The translations under genes and the position numbers were made by a program. This document shows positions 2,433 to 62,808 of a DNA stretch of 64,000 nt, piece after piece (positions within the stretch are counted from its first letter, which is position 1; the number at the start of each line of letters is the position of its first letter). Source of the stretch: Chloroflexota bacterium (lineage in GTDB: Bacteria > Chloroflexota > DTOL01 > JACQYG01); contig JBFMCB010000001.1 of the NCBI GenBank assembly GCA_040754915.1, forward strand, positions 4,443 through 68,442, written 5' to 3'. The notes under the pieces were generated by a model, which searched no databases, was not told the origin of the DNA, and saw only the letters and a list, made by a program, of their open reading frames with translations.

Positions 2433-4250
2433 GTGCTGATCCGCAAGTACATCTGGGTCATAGCGTGCGAACTCACCTTTCTGGCAGTGGCCCTATCTTC
2501 AGCCGCGTGGGCCTGGCGTTGGCTGGAGTCGGTGGGCGACTACCGGCCTCCTCTGCGCAGTCGGCCCTCCTTGCAAGGGGCTACCACCCCCGCCGTTCAA
2601 CAGGTGGTACTGGTGGTGTTGGACGGATACGAACCCAAGGTAGCTGAGGCTGCAGGCTTCTTGCCCGACTGGCCAGCGAAGGGTGGTGCTTGTCGCCTGA
2701 GTTATCGGTACGGCGCAGGCTATTTTCCTCCCTGGCTTCCTCTGGTCACCGGTGCTACGGTCGAGTTTGGCGGTGCCGGCAATTGGAAAGGCGTTCTGAA
2801 GAGCGGGCTCCCGGGGCCCTTTGGTTATAGCCTCCCGGGTGGCCCGGGCCGGGCTCGGTCTGAGGAAAGGTTCCAGCCAACCACTATCTTGAAGGCCGCC
2901 AAGAGTGCCGGTTACCTGACTGCGTTCGTGGGGCCTCCGGAGTGGGCCGCTTTCCTTCCTGCGGAGGACGTGACGGCTAGAAATACCATAGCCGCCTCGA
3001 GCCCCCTGGACGCTTTCACGCGGGCCGGGCTTGCTGCCCTGACCGACCTGAAACCCAACCTCCTCTTAACTGCATTGCCCTATCCTGCATCGTATGGCGT
3101 TAGCTCGTCGCCGGCATCCAATGTCGGCCCGGCTGAGAGCGTGGGTGCTTATCTTCGAGCCTTGTATGACGCGTTGGATCCGGCGAACGCTGTTTTAGTG
3201 GTGATAACTATTCCACCAATGATACAACCTGGATGGCGGAACCAAGAGGGCAGGCTATTCCTGGCGGGCGAGAAGGTTCGAGTCGGGGAACATCCCGACA
3301 TGAGGCTGGAGGATGTGGCGGCTGCGGTCATTGCCTTGCTGGGGACGCCAGTGCCGGAAGGTGCTACCGGCTCGGTTCCGTGGCACTTGCTGGCGTTGGA
3401 CGAACGCAGCAAAGCGGTGAAACAGTTGGCCTTTGCTGCCCAACGGGTGGCACTGGCAGATGCATACCTTTTTAGCCTGAAGATGGGAACGTCGGAGGAG
3501 CATGTGGTAAACGATCTGGCCATGTCCAGGAGTGCGCTGAACGTTGGAAATCTGACCGGTGCTTACCGTCTGGCCACCAACGCCATGGCACAAGCTGACT
3601 TGGCCATTGCTAAGGCCAAGGCAGCTAAATTGCAGAAAGACCGTTGGAGGAGGACACCACTCGTGGCTCTGGCGCTGGTGCCACTCGTGCTAGCCATGCT
3701 CGGTGTACTGGCGGTCGTGTTGAATCGATACCGGCCGATACGCGCCCTTCGTCTCTTTCCCCCCTTCGCTCTTTGGCTGGACTCGTCGCCAGGCAGGTTT
3801 GCGGTGGCCTTGGCTGGGTTTGGCGCGGCAATCACGGCTGGCTTTCTGGCAATCCAACCGGGCTCTTCTGTTTACTGGCAGCCGGGAGGCTGGCCAACGG
3901 CCGCCCTGGAGCGTATGCTGGGCGTGTCTTCTTGGTCACTGATCCTGCCATCGCTGGCCCTGGGGTTCTACCTGTTCAGAGAAAGGGTCGAACCGGGAGA
4001 GTTTTTTCGCCTGGGGCTGCTCCTCTCTGCCTGGCTGATCTACCTGGAACTGGTGCCGCTGCTGCTCTTATACTGGCACGACGGTCTGAGGCTGACCTGG
4101 TACATCCCGGACGCCTGGGTGTTATGGTTGTGGCCGACGGCGCTCTCACTCTTGTTCGCTTCGGCGGCCGCTGCTGTCGTTGTTCCGCCGGTCGTGGCCG
4201 CTTTCTATGCCCTGGCCTGGTCATCAAATAGCGACAACCGGAAGCTGTAA
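2433..4250 (+). CDS. hypothetical membrane protein (N-terminal TM, alkaline-phosphatase-like VVLVVLDGYEP segment, C-terminal polytopic region)
   Basis: 605-codon GTG-initiated ORF without stops in 63% GC DNA, far longer than expected by chance; N-terminal hydrophobic helix, Ala/Gly/Pro-rich middle, at least 6 C-terminal hydrophobic helices. Function not recognised. Confidence 0.55.
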   Translation: MLIRKYIWVIACELTFLAVALSSAAWAWRWLESVGDYRPPLRSRPSLQGATTPAVQQVVLVVLDGYEPKVAEAAGFLPDWPAKGGACRLSYRYGAGYFPPWLPLVTGATVEFGGAGNWKGVLKSGLPGPFGYSLPGGPGRARSEERFQPTTILKAAKSAGYLTAFVGPPEWAAFLPAEDVTARNTIAASSPLDAFTRAGLAALTDLKPNLLLTALPYPASYGVSSSPASNVGPAESVGAYLRALYDALDPANAVLVVITIPPMIQPGWRNQEGRLFLAGEKVRVGEHPDMRLEDVAAAVIALLGTPVPEGATGSVPWHLLALDERSKAVKQLAFAAQRVALADAYLFSLKMGTSEEHVVNDLAMSRSALNVGNLTGAYRLATNAMAQADLAIAKAKAAKLQKDRWRRTPLVALALVPLVLAMLGVLAVVLNRYRPIRALRLFPPFALWLDSSPGRFAVALAGFGAAITAGFLAIQPGSSVYWQPGGWPTAALERMLGVSSWSLILPSLALGFYLFRERVEPGEFFRLGLLLSAWLIYLELVPLLLLYWHDGLRLTWYIPDAWVLWLWPTALSLLFASAAAAVVVPPVVAAFYALAWSSNSDNRKL

Positions 4251-4314: not shown

Positions 4315-4842
4315 ATGCCGGAGGAAGTTGAGCTGGTGCGCCGGGCCGTGCGGCGCGAGGCGGAAGCCTTTGCCCGGCTCTACGAGCTGCATTTGGACGA
4401 GGTATTCCGCTACGTTTACTATAAGACCGGGGATACAGCGGAGGCCGAGGACCTGACGGAGCAGGTTTTCCTGAAAGCCTGGGAATCCATCGATCGCTTC
4501 CAGTGGCGGGGGACCCCTTTCAGGGCCTGGCTGTTGCGTCTGGCCCACAATCTGGTAGTTGACCGCTGGCGAGGTCGAAGGGAAACGCTGTCCTTAAATG
4601 ATGTTCAATCCGCGCCTACGCCTGGTCCGGAGGGCCAGGCCTACAAGACACTGGAGGCTCAGGAGCTGCGGCAGGTGCTCCTTAGCCTTTCGCCGGAGCA
4701 GCAGCAGGTCCTCATCCTGCGTTTTGTGGAGGACTTGAGCTACCAGGAGATCGCCTCGATCATGGGCAAATCCGAAGGCGCTCTCCGGGTGATCCAGCAC
4801 CGGGCTTTGGCCAATTTGCGAAAGGCCATGGCTGAGAGTTAG
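4315..4842 (+). CDS. ECF-type RNA polymerase sigma-70 family sigma factor
   Basis: Region 2 (FARLYELHLDEVFRYVYYKTGDTAEAEDLTQEVFLKAWE) and region 4 (LSPEQQQVLILRFVEDLSYQEIASIMGKSEGALRVIQHRALANLRK) motifs; start set at ATG 4315 (RBS AAGGTAGAGGG) rather than the track's upstream ATG 4180. Confidence 0.85.
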   Translation: MPEEVELVRRAVRREAEAFARLYELHLDEVFRYVYYKTGDTAEAEDLTEQVFLKAWESIDRFQWRGTPFRAWLLRLAHNLVVDRWRGRRETLSLNDVQSAPTPGPEGQAYKTLEAQELRQVLLSLSPEQQQVLILRFVEDLSYQEIASIMGKSEGALRVIQHRALANLRKAMAES

Positions 4843-7820: not shown

Positions 7821-10442
7821 ATGAAGAAGGCCTCCTACCTGGGTATCCTCGTCCTGCCACTGGCGCTTTCCCTCCTCTTGTGGTCTAACCCTCGCAACTC
7901 CCTGGCCATTGCTCCTTCATTGGCCTCAGGTAGTGCCAGGATCCCGGTATTCTTCCTGGGCAGGGAAGGCAGTGTAAGAAGGGCCCTCTCCATATCTCCA
8001 GAGGTCAGCCTGGTTTCCCAGCCCTCTGATGTCAGGGCGGTGGTGATCGACAACGACCTGCTGGAGGAGGCCCAGGCACGGAGGCTGAACACAACCGTCC
8101 AGGCTGGCACAGGGATGGTGATCTTCCTGGGAAACCAGATCACCTCGTCCATGCTGGAGGCGTTGCTGGGAACCCCTGTGTCCCTGGAGCCGCGCTCTCA
8201 GGTGGAAAGCATTGTGGCCAACAAGGCCTTGGCCGATGCGCTCCTGAGCCAGATCACCTGGAACTCGGCCCCCCAGGTCCGCGAGAGGTCCGTACCGAGG
8301 TTTCGAGAGCTGCAGCCGCAGGCCCTGGTGCAAACCTACAAGGTGACCGACGCGGAGCCGGTGATCATGCGTTTCGTCGTGGGAAAAGGGACCGTCTACC
8401 TGCTCACCCCCTGGCTCTCCGAGAGGGCCAACGTACACCTGCAGCAGTGGCCGTATTTTAACTACCTGGTGTATCACCTCACCGCCCGGGCCGCTGGTGA
8501 CGAGGCCATGTCCTTTGCCGATTACCCGGTTTCGCCGGTCCCCCATTCCAACGAAAAGCTATTTCTGGTTTTCACACTGGTTCTAATGATCAGTACTACG
8601 GTGGGCGTTTTCATTGTCGTTCGTCGGTATAGTCTGAGACACCCGGAGAAGCTGCAACAGATCGTGGTCAACGGTGAGGGATACCAACAAGCGGAGACGG
8701 CCGAGTGGGAGGAGATAGGCTTCCACCGTCCCCTGGCCGGCTTTTTGCTCCTGCTGGCCATGGGGCTTGTGCTGTTCATCCCGCTGATGGTCTATCAGAG
8801 CATCGTCTTACCCCGGTTTCTTTTGCCCTCGGCCCAGGCCATCGGCATCACCTGGGCCGTCCCCCGCTTTTTCGAGCTCTTCTGGGTGCTGTTTGATTGG
8901 GGCACCAGCATCGCGCTGATCAAGTACTTCGCCGAATACCGTGTGGATCAGCCCGAGCGCGGCATCAAGTACGTCCAGCTCTTCGTCTGGTGGCAGGCCA
9001 TCACCGGTACCATCCAGTTAAGTTGGGTGGCCCTTCTGGCCGCCTTCGTAGTGCCCAACACCGCCTACGCCTATCTTTCCTACTACTTTGTGATTCACGC
9101 CATCATCCAGTTTCCTGGTTTCTTGCGGGTTTACCAGTACGTATTGCGGGCCTTCCAACGGCTGGACTACGATCAGATCTTGAACATCCTGGCGACCTTG
9201 GCCCCCGTAGTTGTCCAGACCGCTACCGTGTGGTTTATGGTCCGCTGGGGTATGGGCAACCCGGTCTTTGGGGAGGCCATGGGCGGGGTCTTCGGCGTGG
9301 GTTTGAGCCTGTACCTGATCGAGGTGAGCGTCTTCCTGGTGGGTTTTTGGCTGTACAGGCGCCTCGGCTACGGTGCCAGCGTGATCTTCCTGGCCCACTT
9401 CGACTGGGAGACGCTGAAAAGGGCCCTGAGGTTCGGGTTCGCGGTAACCGTGGCCGGGATATTCGGCTCCCTGGGCTGGGCCGTCCAGATAGTCTTGATG
9501 GAACGTTACCTGGTGAATTACTCCGAGGTGATGGGGAACTGGAACGTGGCCTTTGGGCTCATCCTGGCTTTCGCCGCGTTGGGCGGGCTCTACCAGGGGA
9601 TGATGCCGGGCATCTCTGAATCCTTCAGCCACAAGCGCCAGGAGTTGACGGCCTACTACGTAGCCCAGGGCTTCAAGTACGGGGGTTGGTTCAGTGGCTG
9701 GATCGGCGGCGCTCTCCTGGCGGTCTGCGACCGTTTCATCTTGGGCTCCCTCGGTAGCGAGTGGGCCAGGGCCGCGGAGATCGTGGGGGTATTGATCGTC
9801 TGGGGGGCAGTGCAGTACCCGGCCTGGTTTGCCGACCGGGTCCAGGAAGGCACGGGCAAGCCTTACCTCATGGCACTTCTCCTGATCATGGAACAGACCC
9901 TGCGCATCGTCCTCATGTTTGTGTTCGTCCCCACACTTCAGCTCTGGGGTCTCATCCTGGCCTATTTGATCGCCCTGCCGACGAAGGATGTGGTCGCCTG
10001 GCTGGTGAACTGGAAGCTCATCATCAGGCCCCGGATCTACTGGTGGCAGTCTTTCGTGGCTCCGCTCCTGGCAGCGGCGGTTACGTACCTGGCCCTGCGG
10101 TCCTTGGGGGACCTGCTCTGGCGTAGCGACATCGTCGCGAGCATGCTCCTCTTCTTCATCGCCATCCTGCCCTCTTTACCTTTCTTCTGTTTCTTCAATG
10201 GCCTCTTCGGTGGGTGGGAGGACCACGGGCTCCTGGAGCTGAGAAAGGCCGCCTCCATGAGCAGCTTCGCCCGGCCTTTTTCCTGGATGATCTACTGGTC
10301 TACGTACTGGGGGGCCAGGATATCGCCCCTGCACAACCGTTTTCCGATGGTGGTTTCCCCAGCCCTGGCCGAGGCCCGCTCCCTTACCAAGGAGAAGGTC
10401 TCTCTGGTGGGGCGGCCTCTGCCGGCCCAGCACGGGTCCTGA
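7821..10442 (+). CDS. large polytopic membrane protein with N-terminal periplasmic domain (possibly MOP-flippase-like); function unknown
   Basis: 873 aa; signal peptide (MKKASYLGILVLPLALSLLLW), roughly 250-aa soluble N-domain, then at least 14 predicted hydrophobic helices. No catalytic motif recognised. Confidence 0.6.
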   Translation: MKKASYLGILVLPLALSLLLWSNPRNSLAIAPSLASGSARIPVFFLGREGSVRRALSISPEVSLVSQPSDVRAVVIDNDLLEEAQARRLNTTVQAGTGMVIFLGNQITSSMLEALLGTPVSLEPRSQVESIVANKALADALLSQITWNSAPQVRERSVPRFRELQPQALVQTYKVTDAEPVIMRFVVGKGTVYLLTPWLSERANVHLQQWPYFNYLVYHLTARAAGDEAMSFADYPVSPVPHSNEKLFLVFTLVLMISTTVGVFIVVRRYSLRHPEKLQQIVVNGEGYQQAETAEWEEIGFHRPLAGFLLLLAMGLVLFIPLMVYQSIVLPRFLLPSAQAIGITWAVPRFFELFWVLFDWGTSIALIKYFAEYRVDQPERGIKYVQLFVWWQAITGTIQLSWVALLAAFVVPNTAYAYLSYYFVIHAIIQFPGFLRVYQYVLRAFQRLDYDQILNILATLAPVVVQTATVWFMVRWGMGNPVFGEAMGGVFGVGLSLYLIEVSVFLVGFWLYRRLGYGASVIFLAHFDWETLKRALRFGFAVTVAGIFGSLGWAVQIVLMERYLVNYSEVMGNWNVAFGLILAFAALGGLYQGMMPGISESFSHKRQELTAYYVAQGFKYGGWFSGWIGGALLAVCDRFILGSLGSEWARAAEIVGVLIVWGAVQYPAWFADRVQEGTGKPYLMALLLIMEQTLRIVLMFVFVPTLQLWGLILAYLIALPTKDVVAWLVNWKLIIRPRIYWWQSFVAPLLAAAVTYLALRSLGDLLWRSDIVASMLLFFIAILPSLPFFCFFNGLFGGWEDHGLLELRKAASMSSFARPFSWMIYWSTYWGARISPLHNRFPMVVSPALAEARSLTKEKVSLVGRPLPAQHGS

Positions 10443-14677: not shown

Positions 14678-14700
14678 GTCCCGGAGTGCAACTCCGGGAC
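14678..14700. repeat. palindromic repeat copy (GTCCCGGAGT-GCA-ACTCCGGGAC), inner-arm version of the window's REP-like family
   Basis: Perfect 10-bp arms; same inner arms as copies at 14737, 57540, 57746 and 58621. Confidence 0.7.
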
Positions 14701-14736
14701 GAGCGCAGAGATAGAAGAAAGATCCTTGCGAGCTCT

Positions 14737-14765
14737 GATGTCCCGGAGTTCAACTCCGGGACATC
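14737..14765. repeat. palindromic repeat copy (GATGTCCCGGAGTT-C-AACTCCGGGACATC)
   Basis: 29-bp perfect palindrome, 36 bp from the 14678 copy (paired arrangement like a BIME). Confidence 0.75.
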
Positions 14766-14854
14766 ACGTGGGGTTCTCGGCCGCATCTCTAGGACCGGCT
14801 AGATAGGGGAGATCAAGGCGCCCAAGTGATAGTTGGGAACAGAGTGAGAGCGAA

Positions 14855-14895
14855 GCGGGGAAGGATGGTGGAAATCCTTCCCCGCTTTCTTTTCG
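14855..14895. terminator. bidirectional intrinsic-terminator-like hairpin between convergent genes (GCGGGGAAGGAT-loop-ATCCTTCCCCGC followed by TTTCTTTTCG)
   Basis: 12-bp stem, 7-nt loop, T-rich tract on the plus strand; lies between the plus-strand lipoprotein gene and the minus-strand M1 peptidase gene whose stop is at 14905. Confidence 0.6.
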
Positions 14896-32630: not shown

Positions 32631-34292
32631 TTACTTCCCCAGCCTGGCCACCTCCTCTTCGGCCAGGGTCTCGTCTAGCTTCTTGAACAGCGGTGTGGGG
32701 TCGCGCAAGACCTGCCCCGCGGGCAATTCACTCCACCGCCAGTCCCCTGGGCCGATCGGTTCGTTGTACCCCAGATAACCCTGGAGCCTCTGAGAGCTGA
32801 AGGGCAGAAAGGGGTAGAACAGGAGCTTCAGCGCGTTGATCACCTGGAGGGCCACGAACAGGCTCGTGGCAGCGGCAGGACGATCGGCCTTGATCTGTTT
32901 CCAGGGAGCCCTGGCGTCCAGGTAGCGGTTGGCCTCCTGGGCCAGCCCCATGATCTCGCGGAGGGCGGCCTTGAACTGGCAGCCGGCCAGGAGTCCATCC
33001 ACTACCGTGAGAGTGGCCCGGGCCCGGTCCAGCATGGCCTTATCCGCCTCCTCCAGATTGGCTGGCTTAGGGACCTGGCGATCGAAATTCCGATAGGTGA
33101 AGGTCAGGACCCGGTGAACCAGGTTGCCGTAGGTGGCCACCAGTTCGTCGTTGTTGCGCCGGACGAATTCCCGCCAGGTGAAGTCGGAGTCGCTGGTCTC
33201 CGGGGCATTTGCCGCCAGATAGTAGCGCAGCGGATCGGGTTCGTACCGGGACAGATAATCAGGGATCCAAACCCCCCAATGTCGGCTCTTGGAGATCTTC
33301 TGTCCCTCCAGGTTCAAAAACTCGTTAGCTGGCACGTCGTACGGCAGATTGTAATCCCCATGCCCCATGAGCATGGCTGGCCAGATTACGGTGTGGAAGA
33401 AAATGTTATCTTTGCCGATGAAATAGTAGGTCTTTGCCTCTTGCTGCCACCACTCCCGCCATTTCTCCGGCTGCCCTTGGCGCTGGGCCCACTCGATGCT
33501 GGCCGACAGGTAGCCGATCACCGCCTCGAACCAAACGTAGATGCGCTTGCTCTCGAAACCGGGAAGCGGCACAGAAATGCCCCAATCGATGTCCCGGGTT
33601 ATGGGTCGGCTGCGGAGCCCGGAATTCAATATGTTGAGCGTGAAAGCACGCACGTTGGGCCGCCAGTGGGCCTGCCGATCCACCCAGGCGCGCAGCCTAG
33701 CCTCGAAGGCCCCCAGATCCAGGAAGAAATGCTCGGTGTCGCGGATCTCGGGGGTGTGGCCGCAGAAGCGGCAATGAGGCTCCAGGAGATCTATGGAGTT
33801 GAGCGGCTTGCCGCAAACATCGCACTGATCGCCGCGAGCGCCTGGAGCCCCGCAATAGGGACACTTCCCTTCCACGTAGCGATCGGGCAGGTAACGGTGA
33901 CAACGCTCGCAGTAGAGAGATTGCATCACCTCTTTGTGAATGTAGCCCTTGTTCAAGAGTGTCAGGAAGATGTCGTGGGCGACTTGCTTATGGTTTTCGG
34001 TTTCAGTCTTGGTGAACAGGTCATAGCTGATCCCCAGTTTCTGCCAGGATTCCAGGAAGCTCTCGTGGTAGAACTCGGCCACCTCTTTGGGTGACCTGCC
34101 TTCCTGCTCGGCGGTCACGGTGATCGGCGTGCCGTGTTGGTCGCTGCCGGAGACCATGAGCACCAGGTTGCCCTTGGCCCGGTGATAGCGGCCAAAGACG
34201 TCGGCCGGAAGGTACGCGCCGGCGATGCCGCCGGCATGAAGGTACCCAGCGGCGTAGGGCCAGGCCACGCAGACCAGTATATGCTCTGGCAT
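32631..34292 (-). CDS. metG: methionine--tRNA ligase
   Basis: Start at ATG 34292 (MPEHILVCVAWPYAAGYLHAGGIAG = HIGH region), KISKSRHWGV = KMSKS, Cys-rich zinc knuckles (CERCHRYL...CPYCG...CDVCG). The track's 27-codon 5' extension is translation of a palindromic repeat and is rejected. Confidence 0.9.
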   Translation of the reverse strand: MPEHILVCVAWPYAAGYLHAGGIAGAYLPADVFGRYHRAKGNLVLMVSGSDQHGTPITVTAEQEGRSPKEVAEFYHESFLESWQKLGISYDLFTKTETENHKQVAHDIFLTLLNKGYIHKEVMQSLYCERCHRYLPDRYVEGKCPYCGAPGARGDQCDVCGKPLNSIDLLEPHCRFCGHTPEIRDTEHFFLDLGAFEARLRAWVDRQAHWRPNVRAFTLNILNSGLRSRPITRDIDWGISVPLPGFESKRIYVWFEAVIGYLSASIEWAQRQGQPEKWREWWQQEAKTYYFIGKDNIFFHTVIWPAMLMGHGDYNLPYDVPANEFLNLEGQKISKSRHWGVWIPDYLSRYEPDPLRYYLAANAPETSDSDFTWREFVRRNNDELVATYGNLVHRVLTFTYRNFDRQVPKPANLEEADKAMLDRARATLTVVDGLLAGCQFKAALREIMGLAQEANRYLDARAPWKQIKADRPAAATSLFVALQVINALKLLFYPFLPFSSQRLQGYLGYNEPIGPGDWRWSELPAGQVLRDPTPLFKKLDETLAEEEVARLGK

Positions 34293-34306
34293 TTCAACTC
34301 CAGTTA

Positions 34307-34329
34307 GGTTCAGGAGTTCAACTCCTGAA
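34307..34329. repeat. 23-bp perfect palindrome GTTCAGGAGTT-C-AACTCCTGAAC (variant of the CCGGAGTT-N-AACTCCGG family) in the metG 5' region
   Basis: Read directly; flanked by partial outer symmetry (caactccag...aacaactccagg). Confidence 0.65.
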
Positions 34330-34399
34330 CAACTCCAGGCATGGTCATGAAACCCTTGCCCCAGATGGCGCATATTCTATCACAAACCAGTAAAAAACT

Positions 34400-35260: not shown

Positions 35261-35280
35261 TTTCTCTACTAGTAAAGAAA
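35261..35280. repeat. CTAG-centred palindromic motif TTTCTCTACTAGTAAAGAAA (copy 1 of 3)
   Basis: Immediately upstream of the rsmI start, in the divergent promoter region with the 35400 gene; near-identical to 55671..55690 and 57785..57802. Confidence 0.6.
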
Positions 35281-45844: not shown

Positions 45845-45883
45845 GCGCTCAGGCGAGGGTTCGATCCTCGCCTGAGCGCCATC
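45845..45883 (+). other. intercistronic perfect hairpin resembling a tRNA acceptor-stem/T-arm minihelix with 3' GCCA (GCGCTCAGGCGAGG-GTTCGAT-CCTCGCCTGAGCGC-CA)
   Basis: 14-bp perfect stem, 7-nt loop containing TTCGA; 3' strand reads CCTCG (T-stem) + CCTGAGC (7-nt acceptor strand) + G + CCA; located between the SBP and first permease genes. Confidence 0.5.
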
Positions 45884-55666: not shown

Positions 55667-55670
55667 GAGA

Positions 55671-55690
55671 TTTCTTTGCTAGTAAAGAAA
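55671..55690. repeat. CTAG-centred palindromic motif TTTCTTTGCTAGTAAAGAAA (copy 2 of 3), 5 nt after the acdh stop
   Basis: One mismatch (G/A, G-U compatible as RNA) from a perfect 20-bp palindrome. Confidence 0.6.
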
Positions 55691-55734
55691 TCACCACGGA
55701 CGAGGCAAACTAATCATCATCGCGGAGGTGTGAA

Positions 55735-56514
55735 TTGAACATCGTCGTTTGCGTCAAACAGGTCCCCGATACCACGGCCGAGAAGCGGCTGGACGCCAAT
55801 CTACGGCTGGACCGGGCCAGCGTGGACAACATCATCAATCCCTTCGACGAGTATGCCATTGAGGAAGGCCTGCGCCTCCAGGAGGCCCACGGCGGTGAGG
55901 TGGCGCTGCTCTGCATGGGCACGGAATCGGCCCAGGAGACCCTACGAAAAGGACTGGCCATGGGGGCCGATCGGGGCGTGTTGGTGACCGATCCAGCGTT
56001 AGCGGGCTCCGACGCCTGGGCCACTTCCTACGTACTGGCCCAGGCCTTGAAGAGGATGAGCTATGACGTGATCCTCTGCGGCATGCAGACCACCGACTCC
56101 GGCACCGCTCAGGTGCCGGGGGGAGTGGCCGAGTTTCTGGGCCTGCCCCAACTGACCTGGGCCAACAAGGTGGAGATCTCCGATGGAAAGGCCACCATCC
56201 AGCGACAGAGCGATGCCGGCTACGACGTGGTGGAGGCACCGCTGCCGGTGGTGATCAGCGTGATCAAAGGCATCAATGAACCCCGCTATCCATCTCTCAA
56301 AGGGATCATGCAGGCCAGACGCAAGGAACTGCAAATCTGGTCCCTGGATGACCTGGGGATCAGCCAAGACATGGTGGGAGTGCTGGGCGCCAAGACGAAG
56401 GTGCTGGGTTACTCCCGGCCGGCGCCCCGGGCGAAAGGCCAGCTCATCCAGGAGGATAGCCAAACGGCAGCGACCAGGATCGCCGATTTCCTGGTCCAAG
56501 CCAGGGTGCTGTAG
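55735..56514 (+). CDS. etfB: electron transfer flavoprotein subunit beta
   Basis: TTG start after SD GCGGAGGTG; (M)NIVVCVKQVPDTTAEKRLD... is the EtfB N-terminus; 259 aa. Confidence 0.9.
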   Translation: MNIVVCVKQVPDTTAEKRLDANLRLDRASVDNIINPFDEYAIEEGLRLQEAHGGEVALLCMGTESAQETLRKGLAMGADRGVLVTDPALAGSDAWATSYVLAQALKRMSYDVILCGMQTTDSGTAQVPGGVAEFLGLPQLTWANKVEISDGKATIQRQSDAGYDVVEAPLPVVISVIKGINEPRYPSLKGIMQARRKELQIWSLDDLGISQDMVGVLGAKTKVLGYSRPAPRAKGQLIQEDSQTAATRIADFLVQARVL

Positions 56515-56545
56515 AGACGCTCAATTTACTTTAAGGAGGACTGCC

Positions 56546-57532
56546 TTGGGCACGGCGAATGTCATATGGGTCTATGCCGAGCTGAGCGGCAAGGAGCCCA
56601 AGAAGATTGCCCTGGAGCTCATGACCAAGGCCCGGGAGCTGGCCGAGGCCATGGGCGGCAGTGCCGCTGCTGTGGTCCTGGGAACCGGGGCCAGGACCGC
56701 CGCGGAGAAGCTGGCGCAGCACGGGGCCAGTGTGGTCTACGTGGCTGAGGATGAACGGTTCGGCAATGTCCTGACCACCCCCCACGCCGACGCGCTCTCC
56801 GGCCTGATCAAAGAGAAGTCGCCCCGGGCCGTATTATTCGGCGCCACTAACTCCAGCAAGGACATCGCGGCCAGGGTTTCAGCCCGCCTGGGGCTGGGTG
56901 TGATCGCCGACGCTATTGCCATACAAGTAAACGGTAACGAGCTACACGTGGTCAACCCGGCCTTCGGAGGCAGCCTGCTGGTGACCAGCACCTTTACCGA
57001 TGCCAACACCGCCTTCATCATCGCCCGGGCCAAGGCCTTTGCCGCCGAGGAGAGGCCCCAGCCACTGAAGATAGAGGAGGTAAAGCCAGTTTACACCGCA
57101 GCGCCCCAAGCCAGGATCACCGGTGCGGTGGCCCAACCGGAGGCCCGGGTCAGCCTGGAGGAGGCGAACGTCATCGTCTCCGGGGGCCGGGGGCTGGGGG
57201 CGCCGGAGAACTTCAAGCTGGTGGAGGAGCTGGCCCAGGCGTTTGAGGCAGCGGTAGGGGCCTCCCGTGCGGCCGTGGATGCTGGCTGGATCAGCTACCC
57301 CCATCAGGTAGGACAAACGGGCAAGACCGTCAAGCCCAAGGTCTACATCGCCTGTGGCATCTCCGGGGCCATCCAGCATAAGGTGGGCATGCAGACCAGC
57401 GACATCATCATCGCCATTAACAAAGACCCTGATGCGCCGATTTTCAGCTTCGCCGACCTGGGTGTGGTGGGCGATCTCCACCAGATCGTCCCGCTCCTGG
57501 CGAAGGAGATCAGGAAGCGCAAAGGGGCTTAG
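56546..57532 (+). CDS. etfA: electron transfer flavoprotein subunit alpha
   Basis: TTG start 56546 after SD AAGGAGGA (5-nt spacing); ...ANVIWVYAELSGKEPKKIALELMTKAREL; C-terminal FAD-binding region (KVYIACGISGAIQHKVGMQTSDIIIAINKDPDAPIFSFADLGVVGD). The track ORF's 5' part overlaps etfB out of context and is rejected. Confidence 0.9.
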   Translation: MGTANVIWVYAELSGKEPKKIALELMTKARELAEAMGGSAAAVVLGTGARTAAEKLAQHGASVVYVAEDERFGNVLTTPHADALSGLIKEKSPRAVLFGATNSSKDIAARVSARLGLGVIADAIAIQVNGNELHVVNPAFGGSLLVTSTFTDANTAFIIARAKAFAAEERPQPLKIEEVKPVYTAAPQARITGAVAQPEARVSLEEANVIVSGGRGLGAPENFKLVEELAQAFEAAVGASRAAVDAGWISYPHQVGQTGKTVKPKVYIACGISGAIQHKVGMQTSDIIIAINKDPDAPIFSFADLGVVGDLHQIVPLLAKEIRKRKGA

Positions 57533-57539
57533 GCCGCCG

Positions 57540-57576
57540 CCCCGATGTCCCGGAGTTGAACTCCGGGACATCGGGG
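57540..57576. repeat. 37-bp perfect palindrome CCCCGATGTCCCGGAGTT-G-AACTCCGGGACATCGGGG (full-length REP-like copy), intergenic etfA / Fe-S oxidoreductase
   Basis: Read directly; 18-bp arms. Confidence 0.8.
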
Positions 57577-57602
57577 TCATCCTCGTCCCATAGGGGGCTT
57601 TC

Positions 57603-59684
57603 ATGGGGTCGATCTTCCGCGACACCTTCTGGAACGTACCGGTGTGGGCTCAGGCCGTCCATTACCTCCTGTCCATAGCCGCCCTGCTCATTCTCAGCTA
57701 CGGCGTCTACCGGCGGGTCTCCCTCTGGCGCCAGGGCCAGAAAACCCCCCGATGTCCCGGAGTTAAACTCCGGGACATCGGGGGTTCTTTACTAGTAAAG
57801 AAGCGGGTGAAGGCCTTTCTGCTCTACGCCATCGCACAGTTGCGCCTGCTCAGGGAGAGGTATCCGGGGATAATGCACCTCTTTATCTTCTGGGGCATGG
57901 TGGTCCTCTTCCTGGGCACGGCCACGGTCACCCTGGACTATGACGTGGCCCACCTGATATTCCGGACCCAGTTTCTAACCGATGGATTCTACCTGGTTTT
58001 CAAGCTTACTTTGGACATCTTAGGCGCCTTGCTCATCGTTGGCGTGCTCCTGGCGGCTTACCGGCGCTACGTCCTCCGCCCTTCGAGGTTGGATAACCTC
58101 TGGCAGGATGCCTATCAGCTCGGGATGCTCTTCGCCATCGGGCTCATGGGCTTTCTCCTGGAGGCCATGCGCCTCGCGGCCTTTAAGCAGCCGGAGGTGG
58201 CCATCTGGTCTCCGGTGGGCTATCTTCTGGCTCAGCCCTTCTGGGGCGTCACTAAGGAGACCATCCGGCCCTACTATGTGGGAACCTGGTTCGTCCACTC
58301 CACCATGGCCCTGGTCTTCATCGCCAGCCTGCCCTACACTAAGCTCTGGCACATCGTCGCCTCTCCGACCAACATCTTCTTCCGCTCCTTGAGGCCAGCC
58401 GGGGAGCTCTTGCCCATCGAGAACCTCGAGGAACAGGAGACCTTCGGTGTGGGGAAGTTCGAGGAATTCACCTGGAAACAGCGCCTGGATTTCGATGCCT
58501 GTACCCGCTGTGGCCGCTGCCAGGACGCCTGTCCGGCCTGGGCCAGCGGCGCCTCGCTCTCCCCCAAGAAACTGATCCTGGAGCTGCAGCAATGCATGCT
58601 GGAAAAGCCCACCCTGGATACCCCCGATGTCCCCCCGATGTCCCGGAGTTCAACTCCGAGACATCGGGGGACATCGGGCTCGAAAGACCTGCACGGGAAG
58701 GTGGTGGCCGCCGACGAGCTCTGGGCCTGCACCACCTGCCGCGCCTGTGTGCAGGAGTGCCCGGTCTTCATCGAGCACGTGGATACCATTGTGGACATGC
58801 GCCGCTATCTCACCCTCTCCGAGGGGGCGGTGCCGGCGACTACCGCCACCACCCTGAAGCAGATGACTAACCAAGGTAATCCATGGGGGCTCTCCAAGAA
58901 TGACCGGCTGAAGTGGGCTGAGGGTCTGGACGTGAAGGCCATCGCCCCGGGCCAGGAGGTGGAGTATCTCTATTGGGTGGGGTGTTCGGCAGCTTACGAC
59001 GCGCGAAACCAGAAGGTGGCAAAGGCCATGGTGCGGGTGCTTAAGGCGGCCGGGGTGGACTTCGCCATCCTGGGCAACCAGGAGAGATGCTGTGGGGACT
59101 CTGCCCGGCGCTTAGGTGAGGAGTACCTCTTCCAGACTCTGGCCATGGAGAACATCGATAATCTAAAGAAATACCGTTTCCAGAAGATCGTCACTGCCTG
59201 CCCCCACGGCTACAACACGATCAAGAACGAGTACCCGCAGCTCGGCGGAAATTACACCGTCATCCACCACACTGAGTTATTGGCCCAGTTGGTCCAGGAG
59301 GGAAGGCTCGAGCTTTCCAGGCCTTTATACAAGAACATCACCTACCACGATTCGTGCTACCTGGGCCGGTACAACGACATCTTCCAGGCACCCCGCCAGG
59401 TATTGGCCGCCCTCCCCGGCGCTCTGCTCAAGGAGATGGACCGGTCTGGCGATCGGGGCTTCTGCTGCGGCGGTGGCGGCGGCCAGATGTGGATGGAGGC
59501 CAAGGTAGAAAAACGGGTGAACCACATTCGGCTGGAGGATGCCCTGTCGATCAAGCCGGACTGTGTGGGCACCGCCTGCCCCTTCTGCCTGACCATGTTC
59601 GTGGACGCGGCGAAGGTCAAGGGCATCGAAGACTCCTTACCGGTAAAAGACGTGGTGGAGCTCATCGCCGAAGCCTTGGTTTAG
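57603..59684 (+). CDS. membrane-anchored Fe-S oxidoreductase (NarI-like N-terminal membrane domain, 2x[4Fe-4S] ferredoxin motifs, two CCG/HdrD-like Cys-rich domains); putative Etf:quinone oxidoreductase
   Basis: 693 aa; 5 N-terminal hydrophobic helices; CTRCGRCQDACP and CTTCRACVQECP cluster motifs; CCG-domain motifs (CSAAYDARNQ...CCGDSA; CYLGRYN...GFCCGGGGG). Gene order acdh-etfB-etfA-FeS matches syntrophic butyrate oxidiser loci as I recall them. Contains two in-frame palindromic-repeat insertions. Confidence 0.85.
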   Translation: MGSIFRDTFWNVPVWAQAVHYLLSIAALLILSYGVYRRVSLWRQGQKTPRCPGVKLRDIGGSLLVKKRVKAFLLYAIAQLRLLRERYPGIMHLFIFWGMVVLFLGTATVTLDYDVAHLIFRTQFLTDGFYLVFKLTLDILGALLIVGVLLAAYRRYVLRPSRLDNLWQDAYQLGMLFAIGLMGFLLEAMRLAAFKQPEVAIWSPVGYLLAQPFWGVTKETIRPYYVGTWFVHSTMALVFIASLPYTKLWHIVASPTNIFFRSLRPAGELLPIENLEEQETFGVGKFEEFTWKQRLDFDACTRCGRCQDACPAWASGASLSPKKLILELQQCMLEKPTLDTPDVPPMSRSSTPRHRGTSGSKDLHGKVVAADELWACTTCRACVQECPVFIEHVDTIVDMRRYLTLSEGAVPATTATTLKQMTNQGNPWGLSKNDRLKWAEGLDVKAIAPGQEVEYLYWVGCSAAYDARNQKVAKAMVRVLKAAGVDFAILGNQERCCGDSARRLGEEYLFQTLAMENIDNLKKYRFQKIVTACPHGYNTIKNEYPQLGGNYTVIHHTELLAQLVQEGRLELSRPLYKNITYHDSCYLGRYNDIFQAPRQVLAALPGALLKEMDRSGDRGFCCGGGGGQMWMEAKVEKRVNHIRLEDALSIKPDCVGTACPFCLTMFVDAAKVKGIEDSLPVKDVVELIAEALV
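57746..57784. repeat. 39-bp perfect palindrome CCCCCGATGTCCCGGAGTT-A-AACTCCGGGACATCGGGGG located in-frame inside the Fe-S oxidoreductase CDS (encodes TPRCPGVKLRDIGG)
   Basis: Read directly; lies in the loop after the first TM helix; reading frame uninterrupted. Confidence 0.8.
57785..57802. repeat. CTAG-centred perfect palindrome TTCTTTACTAGTAAAGAA (copy 3 of 3), in-frame inside the Fe-S oxidoreductase CDS immediately after the REP-like copy
   Basis: 18-bp perfect palindrome abutting 57746..57784; encodes SLLVKK. Confidence 0.6.
58621..58678. repeat. about 58-bp nested palindrome (CCCCCGATGT + CCCCCCGATGTCCCGGAGTT-C-AACTCCGAGACATCGGGGG + ACATCGGG) in-frame inside the Fe-S oxidoreductase CDS between the two ferredoxin-type Cys motifs
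   Basis: Outer-arm unit CCCCGATGT duplicated; one arm mismatch (CCGAG vs CCGGG); encodes ...DTPDVPPMSRSSTPRHRGTSGS... Confidence 0.8.
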
Positions 59685-59706
59685 AGGCTCAAAAGTGTCA
59701 GAGGCA

Positions 59707-59726
59707 TCCCCGATGTCGACATCGGG
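59707..59726. repeat. 20-bp perfect palindrome CCCCGATGTC-GACATCGGGG (outer-arm-only 'minimal' copy), intergenic Fe-S oxidoreductase / acdh
   Basis: Shares the CCCCGATGTC outer arms of the long copies but lacks the CCGGAGTT inner arms. Confidence 0.7.
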
Positions 59727-62742: not shown

Positions 62743-62808
62743 CAACGTTGAACAATCCTCCCGCAGGTTCCAAACCTGCGGGAGGATTAGGCTTTGGACG
62801 TTCAACGC
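62743..62808 (+). terminator. long nested hairpin after fixX (inner perfect 16-bp stem AATCCTCCCGCAGGTT-CCAA-AACCTGCGGGAGGATT; outer arms ACGTTGAAC/GTTCAACG); terminator/attenuator candidate
   Basis: Inner stem 62754..62789 read directly; followed by GGCTTTGG. Confidence 0.55.

Follow-up and report, generated by a model that had tools for sequence, protein, structure and literature searches.

The DNA studied here is a 64-kb stretch from a Chloroflexota bacterium (64,000 nt, positions 4,443 to 68,442 of contig JBFMCB010000001.1, assembly GCA_040754915.1; hereafter the window), and the subject is a family of short GC-rich palindromes that lies in and around its gene for a membrane Fe-S oxidoreductase. 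We propose, at a probability of roughly 0.7, that these repeats are a miniature, non-coding mobile element of closely related uncultured Chloroflexota, consisting of one perfect palindrome, and that it is tolerated and not functional. This figure applies to the mobile-and-tolerated part of the proposal; the part that concerns a mobilizing enzyme is held with less confidence. Copies come and go at orthologous sites among strains that are 94.5–97% identical, and a new copy comes as a unit. Copies also nest: one sits at the middle of an older copy (site 3, below), and another at the middle of an unrelated AT-rich palindrome (contigs L002 and L008, below).

A GC-rich palindrome at one locus in six haplotypes

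The full element, CCCCGATGTCCCGGAGTTNAACTCCGGGACATCGGGG, is a 37-nt perfect palindrome found at 57540–57576, 57747–57783 and 58633–58669. The repeat finder delimited three copies of a 37–40-nt unit (57538–57577, 57745–57784 and 58631–58670), each a palindrome with arms of 18–19 bp and a single central base. With up to three mismatches allowed, CCCCGATGTCCCGGAGTTNAACTCCGGGACATCGGGG matches the window three times, 100 shuffles yield no match, and the outer 9-mer CCCGATGTC occurs ten times against 0.9 expected, all within 57541–59726. Site 1 (57540–57576), in the spacer between etfA and the oxidoreductase gene, is the 37-nt form with perfect 18-bp arms and a central G. Site 2 (57746–57784) lies in frame within the coding sequence (CDS); it is 39 nt long, with one extra C/G pair and a central A, and codes for P49–G61 (PRCPGVKLRDIGG) in the loop after the first transmembrane helix (TM1). 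Site 3 (58621–58678), likewise in frame, codes for T340–G359 (TPDVPPMSRSSTPRHRGTSG) between the two 4Fe-4S motifs. Its inner full copy (58633–58669, central C, one arm mismatch) is enclosed by a second outer-arm pair, CCCGATGTC and GACATCGGG, at 58623–58631 and 58670–58678. Site 4 (59707–59726), in the spacer that leads to the acyl-CoA dehydrogenase (acd) gene downstream, holds the outer arms only, 20 nt in which CCCCGATGTC abuts GACATCGGGG. The element thus has a full form of 37 nt and an outer-arm form of 20 nt, and the start-to-start spacings in this 2.2-kb region are 207, 886 and ~1075 nt. A preliminary description of this DNA had listed these four copies, and direct reading, the repeat finder and the pattern counts bear out every coordinate. 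It had also stated that the open reading frame (ORF) runs through both internal copies, and the frame is indeed uninterrupted from 57603 to 59684 (693 aa).

For comparison with other strains, the 90% protein cluster of the host protein supplied five members, for four of which DNA was obtained, and one JGI contig was added from a pattern search. The haplotypes are L001 (GCA_016234455.1), L009 (GCA_016208345.1), L007 (GCA_020723545.1), L006 (JGI Ga0352973) and L004 (JGI Ga0315314), and the locus in these five other assemblies is 94.5–97.0% identical to the window at the nucleotide level. Site 1 is filled in the window (centre G) and in L006 (centre C) and empty in L001, L007 and L009; site 2 is filled in the window (centre A) and empty in L001, L006, L007 and L009; L004 covers neither. 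Site 3 is filled in the window and L006 (both with centre C) and in L004 (centre G), and empty in L001, L007 and L009. At site 4, full 37-nt copies in L001 (centre G) and L004 (centre C) occupy the exact position of the outer 20 nt that remain in the window, and L006, L007 and L009 are empty. The copy there, called minimal in the preliminary description, is therefore minimal in the window but complete in two other strains. All four sites are empty in L007 and L009, and for every site there are two or more strains that lack a copy; L001 is filled at site 4 only, L006 at sites 1 and 3, and L004 at sites 3 and 4. All four combinations of presence and absence at sites 3 and 4 are found among the haplotypes, which requires that strains have recombined or that copies were gained and lost repeatedly.

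Distant homologues carry no extra residues after TM1 and have the same length there as the empty alleles, which argues that the filled state is derived. No part of the protein family varies more in length than the linker between the Cys motifs, which is usually shorter in distant homologues than the 65 residues that separate C310 from C376 here. The spacing of about 65 aa had been given correctly in the preliminary description, and its view of the long linker as a lineage-specific insertion holds up, with the proviso that homologue linkers are variable. The orthologue alignment that it suggested bears out the absence of the peptide segments at the palindrome borders in orthologues of 94.5–97% nucleotide identity; that they should be absent exactly at those borders does not, as 4–17 target bases are gone at most sites. 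The GC-rich copies of the gene region are recent and polymorphic between strains.

The copies are not an assembly artefact. Libraries can generate palindromes, and the contigs of relatives (L001, L004 and L005) tend to end near the region, which would suit chimeric palindromic reads or misjoins. Against this, independent assemblies of different projects (the window's metagenome-assembled genome (MAG), GCA_016234455.1, JGI Ga0315314 and JGI Ga0352973) have the same elements at identical base positions, the reading frame is preserved, and the copies contain strain-specific point differences. A degenerate CRISPR array fares no better, as the preliminary description had already concluded: the spacings are irregular, two copies lie in a CDS, no cas domains are present and no Rfam family matches the window at gathering thresholds. 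We regard artefact and CRISPR array alike as effectively refuted.

The contig ends are of some interest in themselves. L005 stops within etfA and L004 begins just before site 3, and palindromes or strain polymorphism may break short-read assemblies at this locus (contig ends of L001, L004 and L005). L005 was found as the etfB match in an exact-protein look-up, and its contig ends before site 1; look-ups with the window's Fe-S oxidoreductase, acd, rsmI and a 327-aa protein gave no match.

Insertion, probable inversion and a second palindrome family

The empty alleles allow the events at each site to be reconstructed. Comparison of L006 with L001, L007 and L009 gives a clean 38-nt insertion at site 1, between ...GGGCAAGC and TCATCC, made up of the 37-mer and one T or an ambiguous TC duplication; target duplication at arrival is thus at most 2 nt. 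The window allele also lacks 11 nt of the left flank (GCGGGCAAGCT). At site 2 the element replaces ~4 nt (AAA and one T) of the empty alleles, which have two codons there (KI, KV or KP in L001, L006, L007 and L009), for a net gain of 33 nt. At site 3, ~56 nt stand in place of 17 nt, a net gain of 39 nt; the empty alleles of L001, L007 and L009 read AKSQKPC or AKAQKPC. At site 4 the element takes the place of ~11 nt (AAAGGCGTTGT), and exactly the inner 17 nt (CCGGAGTTNAACTCCGG) of the full copy are missing from the window. Loss of 4–17 neighbouring bases is usual with or after the arrival of a copy, and within CDSs only net lengths in multiples of three are seen. The central loss at site 4 and the central nesting at site 3 mark the centre of the palindrome as a spot of sequence gain and loss.

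Two simpler accounts of these junctions were rejected. Target replacement at every site is ruled out by the clean insertion at site 1 of L006, the 11-nt deletion having followed later in the window lineage. Insertion aimed at hairpin-prone DNA in general finds no support in the empty sites, which are not unusually stable (29–95% of background windows fold as well or better); of this idea, the particular association with the AT-rich palindrome (below) is the part that holds.

The orientation of the element appears to change as well. At all three sites filled in at least two haplotypes, the centre base is complementary between strains (G versus C); by our own estimate, the chance of three complementary centre changes at ~4% background divergence is below 1e-4. 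Site 3 is the most informative. The L006 copy has the orientation of the window and the L004 copy is reverse-complemented: the elements of the window and L004 are 5 edits apart when compared directly and 2 apart after reverse complementing, and the asymmetric arm spacing of 11/10 nt in the window is mirrored as 10/11 in L004. The inner peptide changes from PPMSRSSTPRHRG (window and L006) to PRCPGVELRDIGG (L004), and the downstream frame is kept because the length is unchanged. To judge from these sequences, the element most likely inverts in place or was re-inserted in the opposite orientation.

Reading of the frames by hand indicates which copies a gene could accommodate. Frame a (RCPGV-x-LRDIG) is interrupted only by a central T, frame b (PDVPE-x-NSGTSG) stays open with any centre base, and frame c (PMSRS-x-TPGHRG) is open with a central C or T only. 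Both internal copies of the window fit these rules, site 3 being read in frame c with centre C and site 2 in frame a with centre A; a flipped site 2 copy would give the stop TAA. The translations of P49–G61 and T340–G359 confirm that the two internal copies use different frames of the palindrome. They also agree with the earlier suggestion that the peptide itself is not selected, and the site 3 element is moreover read in two frames between strains.

A second, unrelated palindrome accompanies the element. The AT-rich perfect palindrome TTCTTTACTAGTAAAGAA (57785–57802, 18 nt) lies 1 nt to the right of site 2 and is in frame, coding for SLLVKK; the two GC-rich palindromes reported inside the CDS are real, but a palindrome of this further, AT-rich family is intragenic too. 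TTCTTTACTAGTAAAGAA occurs three times in the window, where 0 copies are expected. The second, GATTTCTTTGCTAGTAAAGAAATC (55669–55692, core from 55672), is in the acd-etfB spacer of the same operon and recurs in L005 and L006, L007 having a different spacer. The third, TTTCTCTACTAGTAAAGAAA (35261–35280, core from 35262), lies 1 nt upstream of the rsmI start codon. Further copies occur at 1108–1125 of L002 and at 3172–3189 and 3432–3449 of L008, two of them inside zinc-ribbon genes, and the AT-rich palindrome is thus found in spacers and in frame within three different genes. At the equivalent of 57785–57802, L007 has the symmetric variant TTCTTTACCGGTAAAGAA, and the centre of the palindrome varies symmetrically (ACTAGT/ACCGGT) at two loci. 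L009 has no AT-rich palindrome in the oxidoreductase gene. It carries an equal-length block, AAACCCACCGCGTACATCAGCGAG (KPTAYISE), where L001 has AAAATTTCTTTACTAGTAAAGAAG (KISLLVKK), and 5 of 21 bases match between them amid ~96% identical DNA. Since the unrelated L009 block is of equal length and retains the conserved E-R of the protein family, the AT-rich palindrome overwrote this stretch of the gene with no change in length.

The two families meet repeatedly. L008 has an AT-rich palindrome at the exact spot where the GC-rich element of L002 lies, and the element has replaced its central 12 nt. The GC-rich element is therefore beside or inside an AT-rich palindrome at two independent loci, for which we estimate a chance of ~1e-4, and all three AT-rich copies of the window lie within 2 kb of a GC-rich copy. 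By their positions, AT-rich palindromes may serve as landing sites for the GC-rich element. A separate change near the AT-rich palindrome of the host gene is a 131-nt frameshifting deletion at 9112 of L006 (window 57804–57934), which starts 1 nt past the palindrome and splits the gene into ORFs of 58 and 579 aa; it marks either a pseudogene or an assembly error.

Copies of the GC-rich family are also found away from the oxidoreductase gene, contrary to the impression left by the preliminary description: its four copies are real, but the family extends to shorter and variant intergenic copies. A 31-nt perfect palindrome, TGATGTCCCGGAGTTCAACTCCGGGACATCA (14736–14766, −25.6 kcal/mol as a hairpin), lies between convergent genes, with a variant reduced to the inner hairpin, GTCCCGGAGTGCAACTCCGGGAC (14678–14700), 36 nt upstream and also intergenic. 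A possible diverged relative, GTTCAGGAGTTCAACTCCTGAAC (34308–34330), is located between rsmI and the likely true start of metG; it has the 13-mer GGAGTTCAACTCC in common with the family, and its departures from the consensus are paired in both arms. The listed metG ORF starts at 34373, conserved MetRS sequence is present from MPEHILVC (~34292), and this hairpin is probably in the metG 5' leader, where two copies of CAACTCCAG flank it (region 34260–34373).

A metagenome scan with the half element returned three contigs, all from sample Ga0315314: the host locus itself (L004), L003 and L002. L003 holds a decaying GC-rich copy with convergent genes on either side. In L002 the copy lies in frame in a gene for a small zinc-ribbon membrane protein (TRCPGVELRDIGE), of which the closest relative (P0125 on L008, 87% nucleotide identity) has no GC-rich copy; the Fe-S oxidoreductase gene is therefore not the only one in which a copy survives in frame. 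When one genome for each GTDB species was scanned for the exact pattern of the full and of the half element, there were 0 matches; evidently the species representative carries no exact copies or the lineage is not represented. A scan of viral contigs with the element pattern also gave 0 matches, and blastn against plasmids and phages returned nothing meaningful. The peptides of the three frames had no candidate among 5.8 billion cluster representatives, a search that covers representatives of 90% clusters only; the host protein of the window is itself a non-representative member, so this search could not rule out in-frame copies.

Probable tolerance by the host gene and possible routes of spread

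The predicted structure of the host protein is compatible with both inserts. Its gene (57603–59684, plus strand, 693 codons) lies in the order acd-etfB-etfA-[Fe-S oxidoreductase]-acd-fixC, the last encoding a FixC/ETF-QO-like flavoprotein. In the protein, an N-terminal membrane domain of helices is accompanied by two CxxCxxCxxxCP motifs and a pair of CCG domains; Pfam returns CCG twice (3.6e-36) and several Fer4/4Fe-4S families, and a NarI-like match falls just under the cut-off at 20.7 bits. It is identical to MEW6230731.1 from a Chloroflexota MAG at NCBI and has more than 7000 homologues, mostly of 660–670 aa. Membrane-bound, cysteine-rich Fe-S oxidoreductases linked to EtfAB are encoded beside etfAB in syntrophic fatty-acid oxidizers (PMC3582634, PMC5101538). 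From its motifs, domains and gene neighbourhood we assign the host protein to this family (HdrD-like, 'DUF224' type, as in Syntrophomonas wolfei). The listed etfA ORF (56276–57532, 418 aa) overlaps etfB by ~240 nt; the gene calls of L006, L007 and L009 give an etfA of 328 aa, and its true start is probably near 56546.

An AlphaFold2 model built from a 16-sequence alignment (mean pLDDT 72) places helices in residues 14–259. Five segments fall below pLDDT 50, and two of these, residues 45–61 and 336–361, both coil, coincide with the inserts. The model thus supports the placing of both inserts in low-confidence loops that the protein would tolerate. The dN/dS of the gene is 0.19–0.22 (window, L001 and L007 compared), and therefore the gene, the insert-bearing allele included, evolved under purifying selection. 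We propose that in-gene copies persist by a filter, which would pass those with a net length in multiples of three, no stop in the frame used and a position in a dispensable surface loop, and that the hairpins carry no function that the gene requires.

The alternative is that the hairpins do function, as mRNA stabilizers, processing sites or attenuators for etfBA, the oxidoreductase and acd, or as translational pause sites at domain boundaries. The predicted RNA hairpins are extremely stable (−38.2, −39.9 and −48.1 kcal/mol for sites 1, 2 and 3, with z about −7 to −9 and −6.7 for site 1 itself). Sites 1 and 4 bracket the gene in its intercistronic spacers, the classic location of stabilizers of the REP (repetitive extragenic palindromic) type (PMC3733652), and several strains independently gained copies in the same 2.2 kb. 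A terminator-like pattern is present at site 2 only, where the hairpin with its T-rich tail (TTCTTTAC) lies 150 nt into the CDS. Yet no T-run follows the hairpin at site 1 or site 4, where one was looked for. The window copy at site 4, without the inner 17 nt, folds weakly (−13.9 kcal/mol, z = −2.0), and translating ribosomes would melt the copies in the coding region. Copy positions vary by strain, and L007 and L009, at 94.5–96% identity and with the same operon and the same constraint on the gene, have no copy at all. These results argue that a function of the hairpins is improbable. The preliminary description had offered two explanations, a structural role of the hairpins and a tolerated invasion, and the strains that keep the operon and the constrained gene (dN/dS ~0.2) with no copies disfavour the former and support the latter.

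How a tolerated palindrome would come to move is a further matter. In our proposal it would be moved in trans by an enzyme encoded outside the window, the likeliest candidate being one that recognizes single-stranded DNA hairpins, for example a Y1/HUH transposase, the type proposed for REPs, or an enzyme of similar activity. Once in place, the palindrome would cause flips, the loss of the central 17 nt and deletions of the flanks through hairpin-mediated template switching or slippage. The second in-frame case, the zinc-ribbon gene of L002 set against L008, and the dispersed intergenic copies in the window and in L003 speak for mobility. Several points weigh on the other side. No transposase, RAYT, integrase or reverse transcriptase is found among the ~55 ORFs of the window, and the mobilizing enzyme is one that we purely infer. 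The six insertion points share no evident target motif, and the exact-pattern scans found the element in no GTDB representative and in only three JGI contigs from one sample. Four of the seven GC-rich copies of the window fall within 2.2 kb, and different strains gained different sites there; such clustering is no harder to reconcile with local templated copying, or with selection at the locus, than with genome-wide transposition. In most events target bases are replaced, and the AT-rich palindrome overwrote a block of equal length, which is more like patch conversion than transposition.

Local copying with no transposase is the main rival to our proposal, and we consider it possible, if rather unlikely. 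The nascent strand would switch to a nearby palindrome or to its own hairpin, overwrite the target and return. Such a process would account for the clustering, for the target bases lost at sites 2, 3 and 4 and in L002, and for the equal-length replacement by the AT-rich palindrome. It would also suit the absence of a transposase within 64 kb and the G/C difference in centre base between strains. The perfect arms and the paired arm changes (TGATGTC...GACATCA, CAGGAGTT...AACTCCTG and ACTAGT/ACCGGT) are as hairpin-templated correction predicts. Against it stand the clean insertion at site 1 of L006, which cost no target bases, and the copies at unlinked loci (14.7 kb of the window, L002 and L003). 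The filled sites vary by strain (L001 at 4 only, L006 at 1 and 3 only), such that no single local donor suffices, and inspection of the junctions gave no convincing microhomology between donor flanks and targets. Templated copying is thus the better account of the clustering, the replaced bases and the equal-length AT-rich swap, and the worse one of the clean site 1 and the unlinked copies.

A more speculative thought, to which we give no greater weight than to this rival, is that both palindrome families (37-nt GC-rich and 18-nt AT-rich) spread by a hairpin-directed 'patch-writing' and not by classical transposition. The process would overwrite or insert short DNA, preferably in or beside palindromes, would flip the element freely and would act within CDSs. 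If true, it would cover the block swap between L009 and L001, the GC-rich copy in the centre of an AT-rich one, the nesting at site 3 and the G/C centres, and it would point to a mechanism for the smallest mobile elements, the SDR-like repeats.

The window contains other hairpins. In an ABC transporter operon, a 35-nt near-perfect hairpin, GCGCTCAGGCGAGGGTTCGATCCTCGCCTGAGCGC (45845–45879), occupies the spacer that separates the gene for the solute-binding protein from the first permease gene, and its tip resembles a tRNA T-arm (GGTTCGATCC); ARAGORN found no tRNA and no tmRNA in the window, and the hairpin may be an intercistronic mRNA stabilizer. Long perfect hairpins at 62754–62788 (arms of 16–17 bp) and 14853–14887 (15 bp), which belong to neither palindrome family, stand at gene ends and are probably terminators; the former overlaps the start of a listed methyltransferase ORF (62748). 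Two long ORFs of high GC3, 2433–4250 (605 aa) and 7821–10442 (873 aa), have no Pfam match at E ≤ 1e-5.

The wider interest of the locus lies in the view that it gives of a process in mid-flight, with six near-identical haplotypes presenting empty, filled, flipped, nested and decayed copies. Little is yet understood of the way in which tiny palindromes such as REPs and SDRs move, or of the frequency with which they enter genes. Here a hairpin of −40 to −48 kcal/mol and 11–13 extra residues can sit in a constrained gene, and the filters on survival are visible: frame, stops that depend on the centre base, and location in a loop. The MAGs and their reads form a data set on which transposase and template-switch models can be compared. 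Such elements also break metagenome assemblies and yield strain-specific protein lengths that annotators may misread.

Comparison with known repeat systems

The closest parallels in behaviour are the small dispersed repeats (SDRs) of cyanobacteria, hairpin repeats of ~21–27 nt. Elhai et al. (2008, Genome Res 18:1484) are reported to have described SDR1–8 of Nostocaceae as tiny hairpin repeats, recently mobile by the evidence of filled and empty sites and nested within themselves. We know of no transposase associated with them. One SDR family inserts in the short palindrome HIP1 (PMC5861425). The GC-rich element resembles SDRs in a size far below that of MITEs (the miniature transposable elements with inverted repeats), in self-nesting (site 3), in landing in a palindrome (L002 versus L008) and in mobility. 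It differs in belonging to another phylum, in showing no sequence similarity, in being longer (37 nt) and in being an exact palindrome; its in-frame position in CDSs, the G/C change of its centre and the frequent loss of target bases are further differences. In our analysis the element would thus behave in an SDR-like manner and is not a member of the SDR families.

REP and REPIN elements are GC-rich palindromes of 20–40 nt, located mostly between genes in the same direction or convergent genes and variable between strains (Di Nocera et al. 2013, PMC3733652; Bertels and Rainey 2011, PMC3116915). Intragenic REPs are on record in several species, even two per ORF, and add 20–30 residues (PMC3733652). 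The GC-rich element is likewise short and GC-rich and forms a stable stem-loop (37 nt, 18-bp arms, −38 to −48 kcal/mol). The tag GTAG/CGTC that is part of the REP definition (PMC3733652) is absent from the flanks of all copies read, in which the centre base alone is asymmetric. Unlike a REP, the element has perfect arms, and so no built-in orientation, and it is not a doublet of two palindromic REPs. Neither RAYT nor Y1_Tnp was found among the ~55 ORFs of the window.

The preliminary description had named the palindromic elements of Rickettsia (RPEs) as the precedent for in-frame palindromes. They are such a precedent, but the intragenic REPs of several species (PMC3733652) make the field of precedents wider. 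As far as the accounts in PMC3184786 and PMC3733652 extend, RPEs (Ogata et al. 2000) are palindromic selfish DNA of ~100–150 bp that lies in frame and adds 30–50 residues; in their intracellular lineage they are old and have become fixed. The element shares with them its palindromic nature and its in-frame position in coding genes at sites compatible with protein function. In contrast to RPEs, it measures 37–58 nt, is polymorphic in near-identical free-living strains and is read in different frames at the same site. Going by size and by the lack of any sequence relation, the GC-rich element would be analogous to RPEs and is not one of them.

MITEs (Correia, Nezha, Chunjie and others) are 100–400 bp long, have terminal inverted repeats and target duplications, and derive from insertion sequences (PMC3184786, PMC10969869). 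The GC-rich element is similar in being apparently non-autonomous, in its stable hairpin, in its filled/empty polymorphism and in its in-frame fusion to an ORF. It is, by contrast, a single 37-nt palindrome with a duplication of at most 2 nt and no terminal repeats around the core; of the 'tolerated MITE-like invasion' suggested earlier, tolerance stands but the likeness to MITEs does not. The element lies outside the definitions of both REPs and MITEs (PMC3733652, PMC3184786) and is REP- or SDR-like in kind.

In-frame palindromic insertions (RPEs and intragenic REPs) and very small nested hairpin repeats (SDRs) are thus kinds already known. New here are the phylum, the architecture of an exact palindrome and the snapshot of a population in six haplotypes. 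New as well are the complementary G/C centres together with the frame switch in a coding insert, which we read as flipping in place, and the association with a further family of palindromes, which overwrites sequence.

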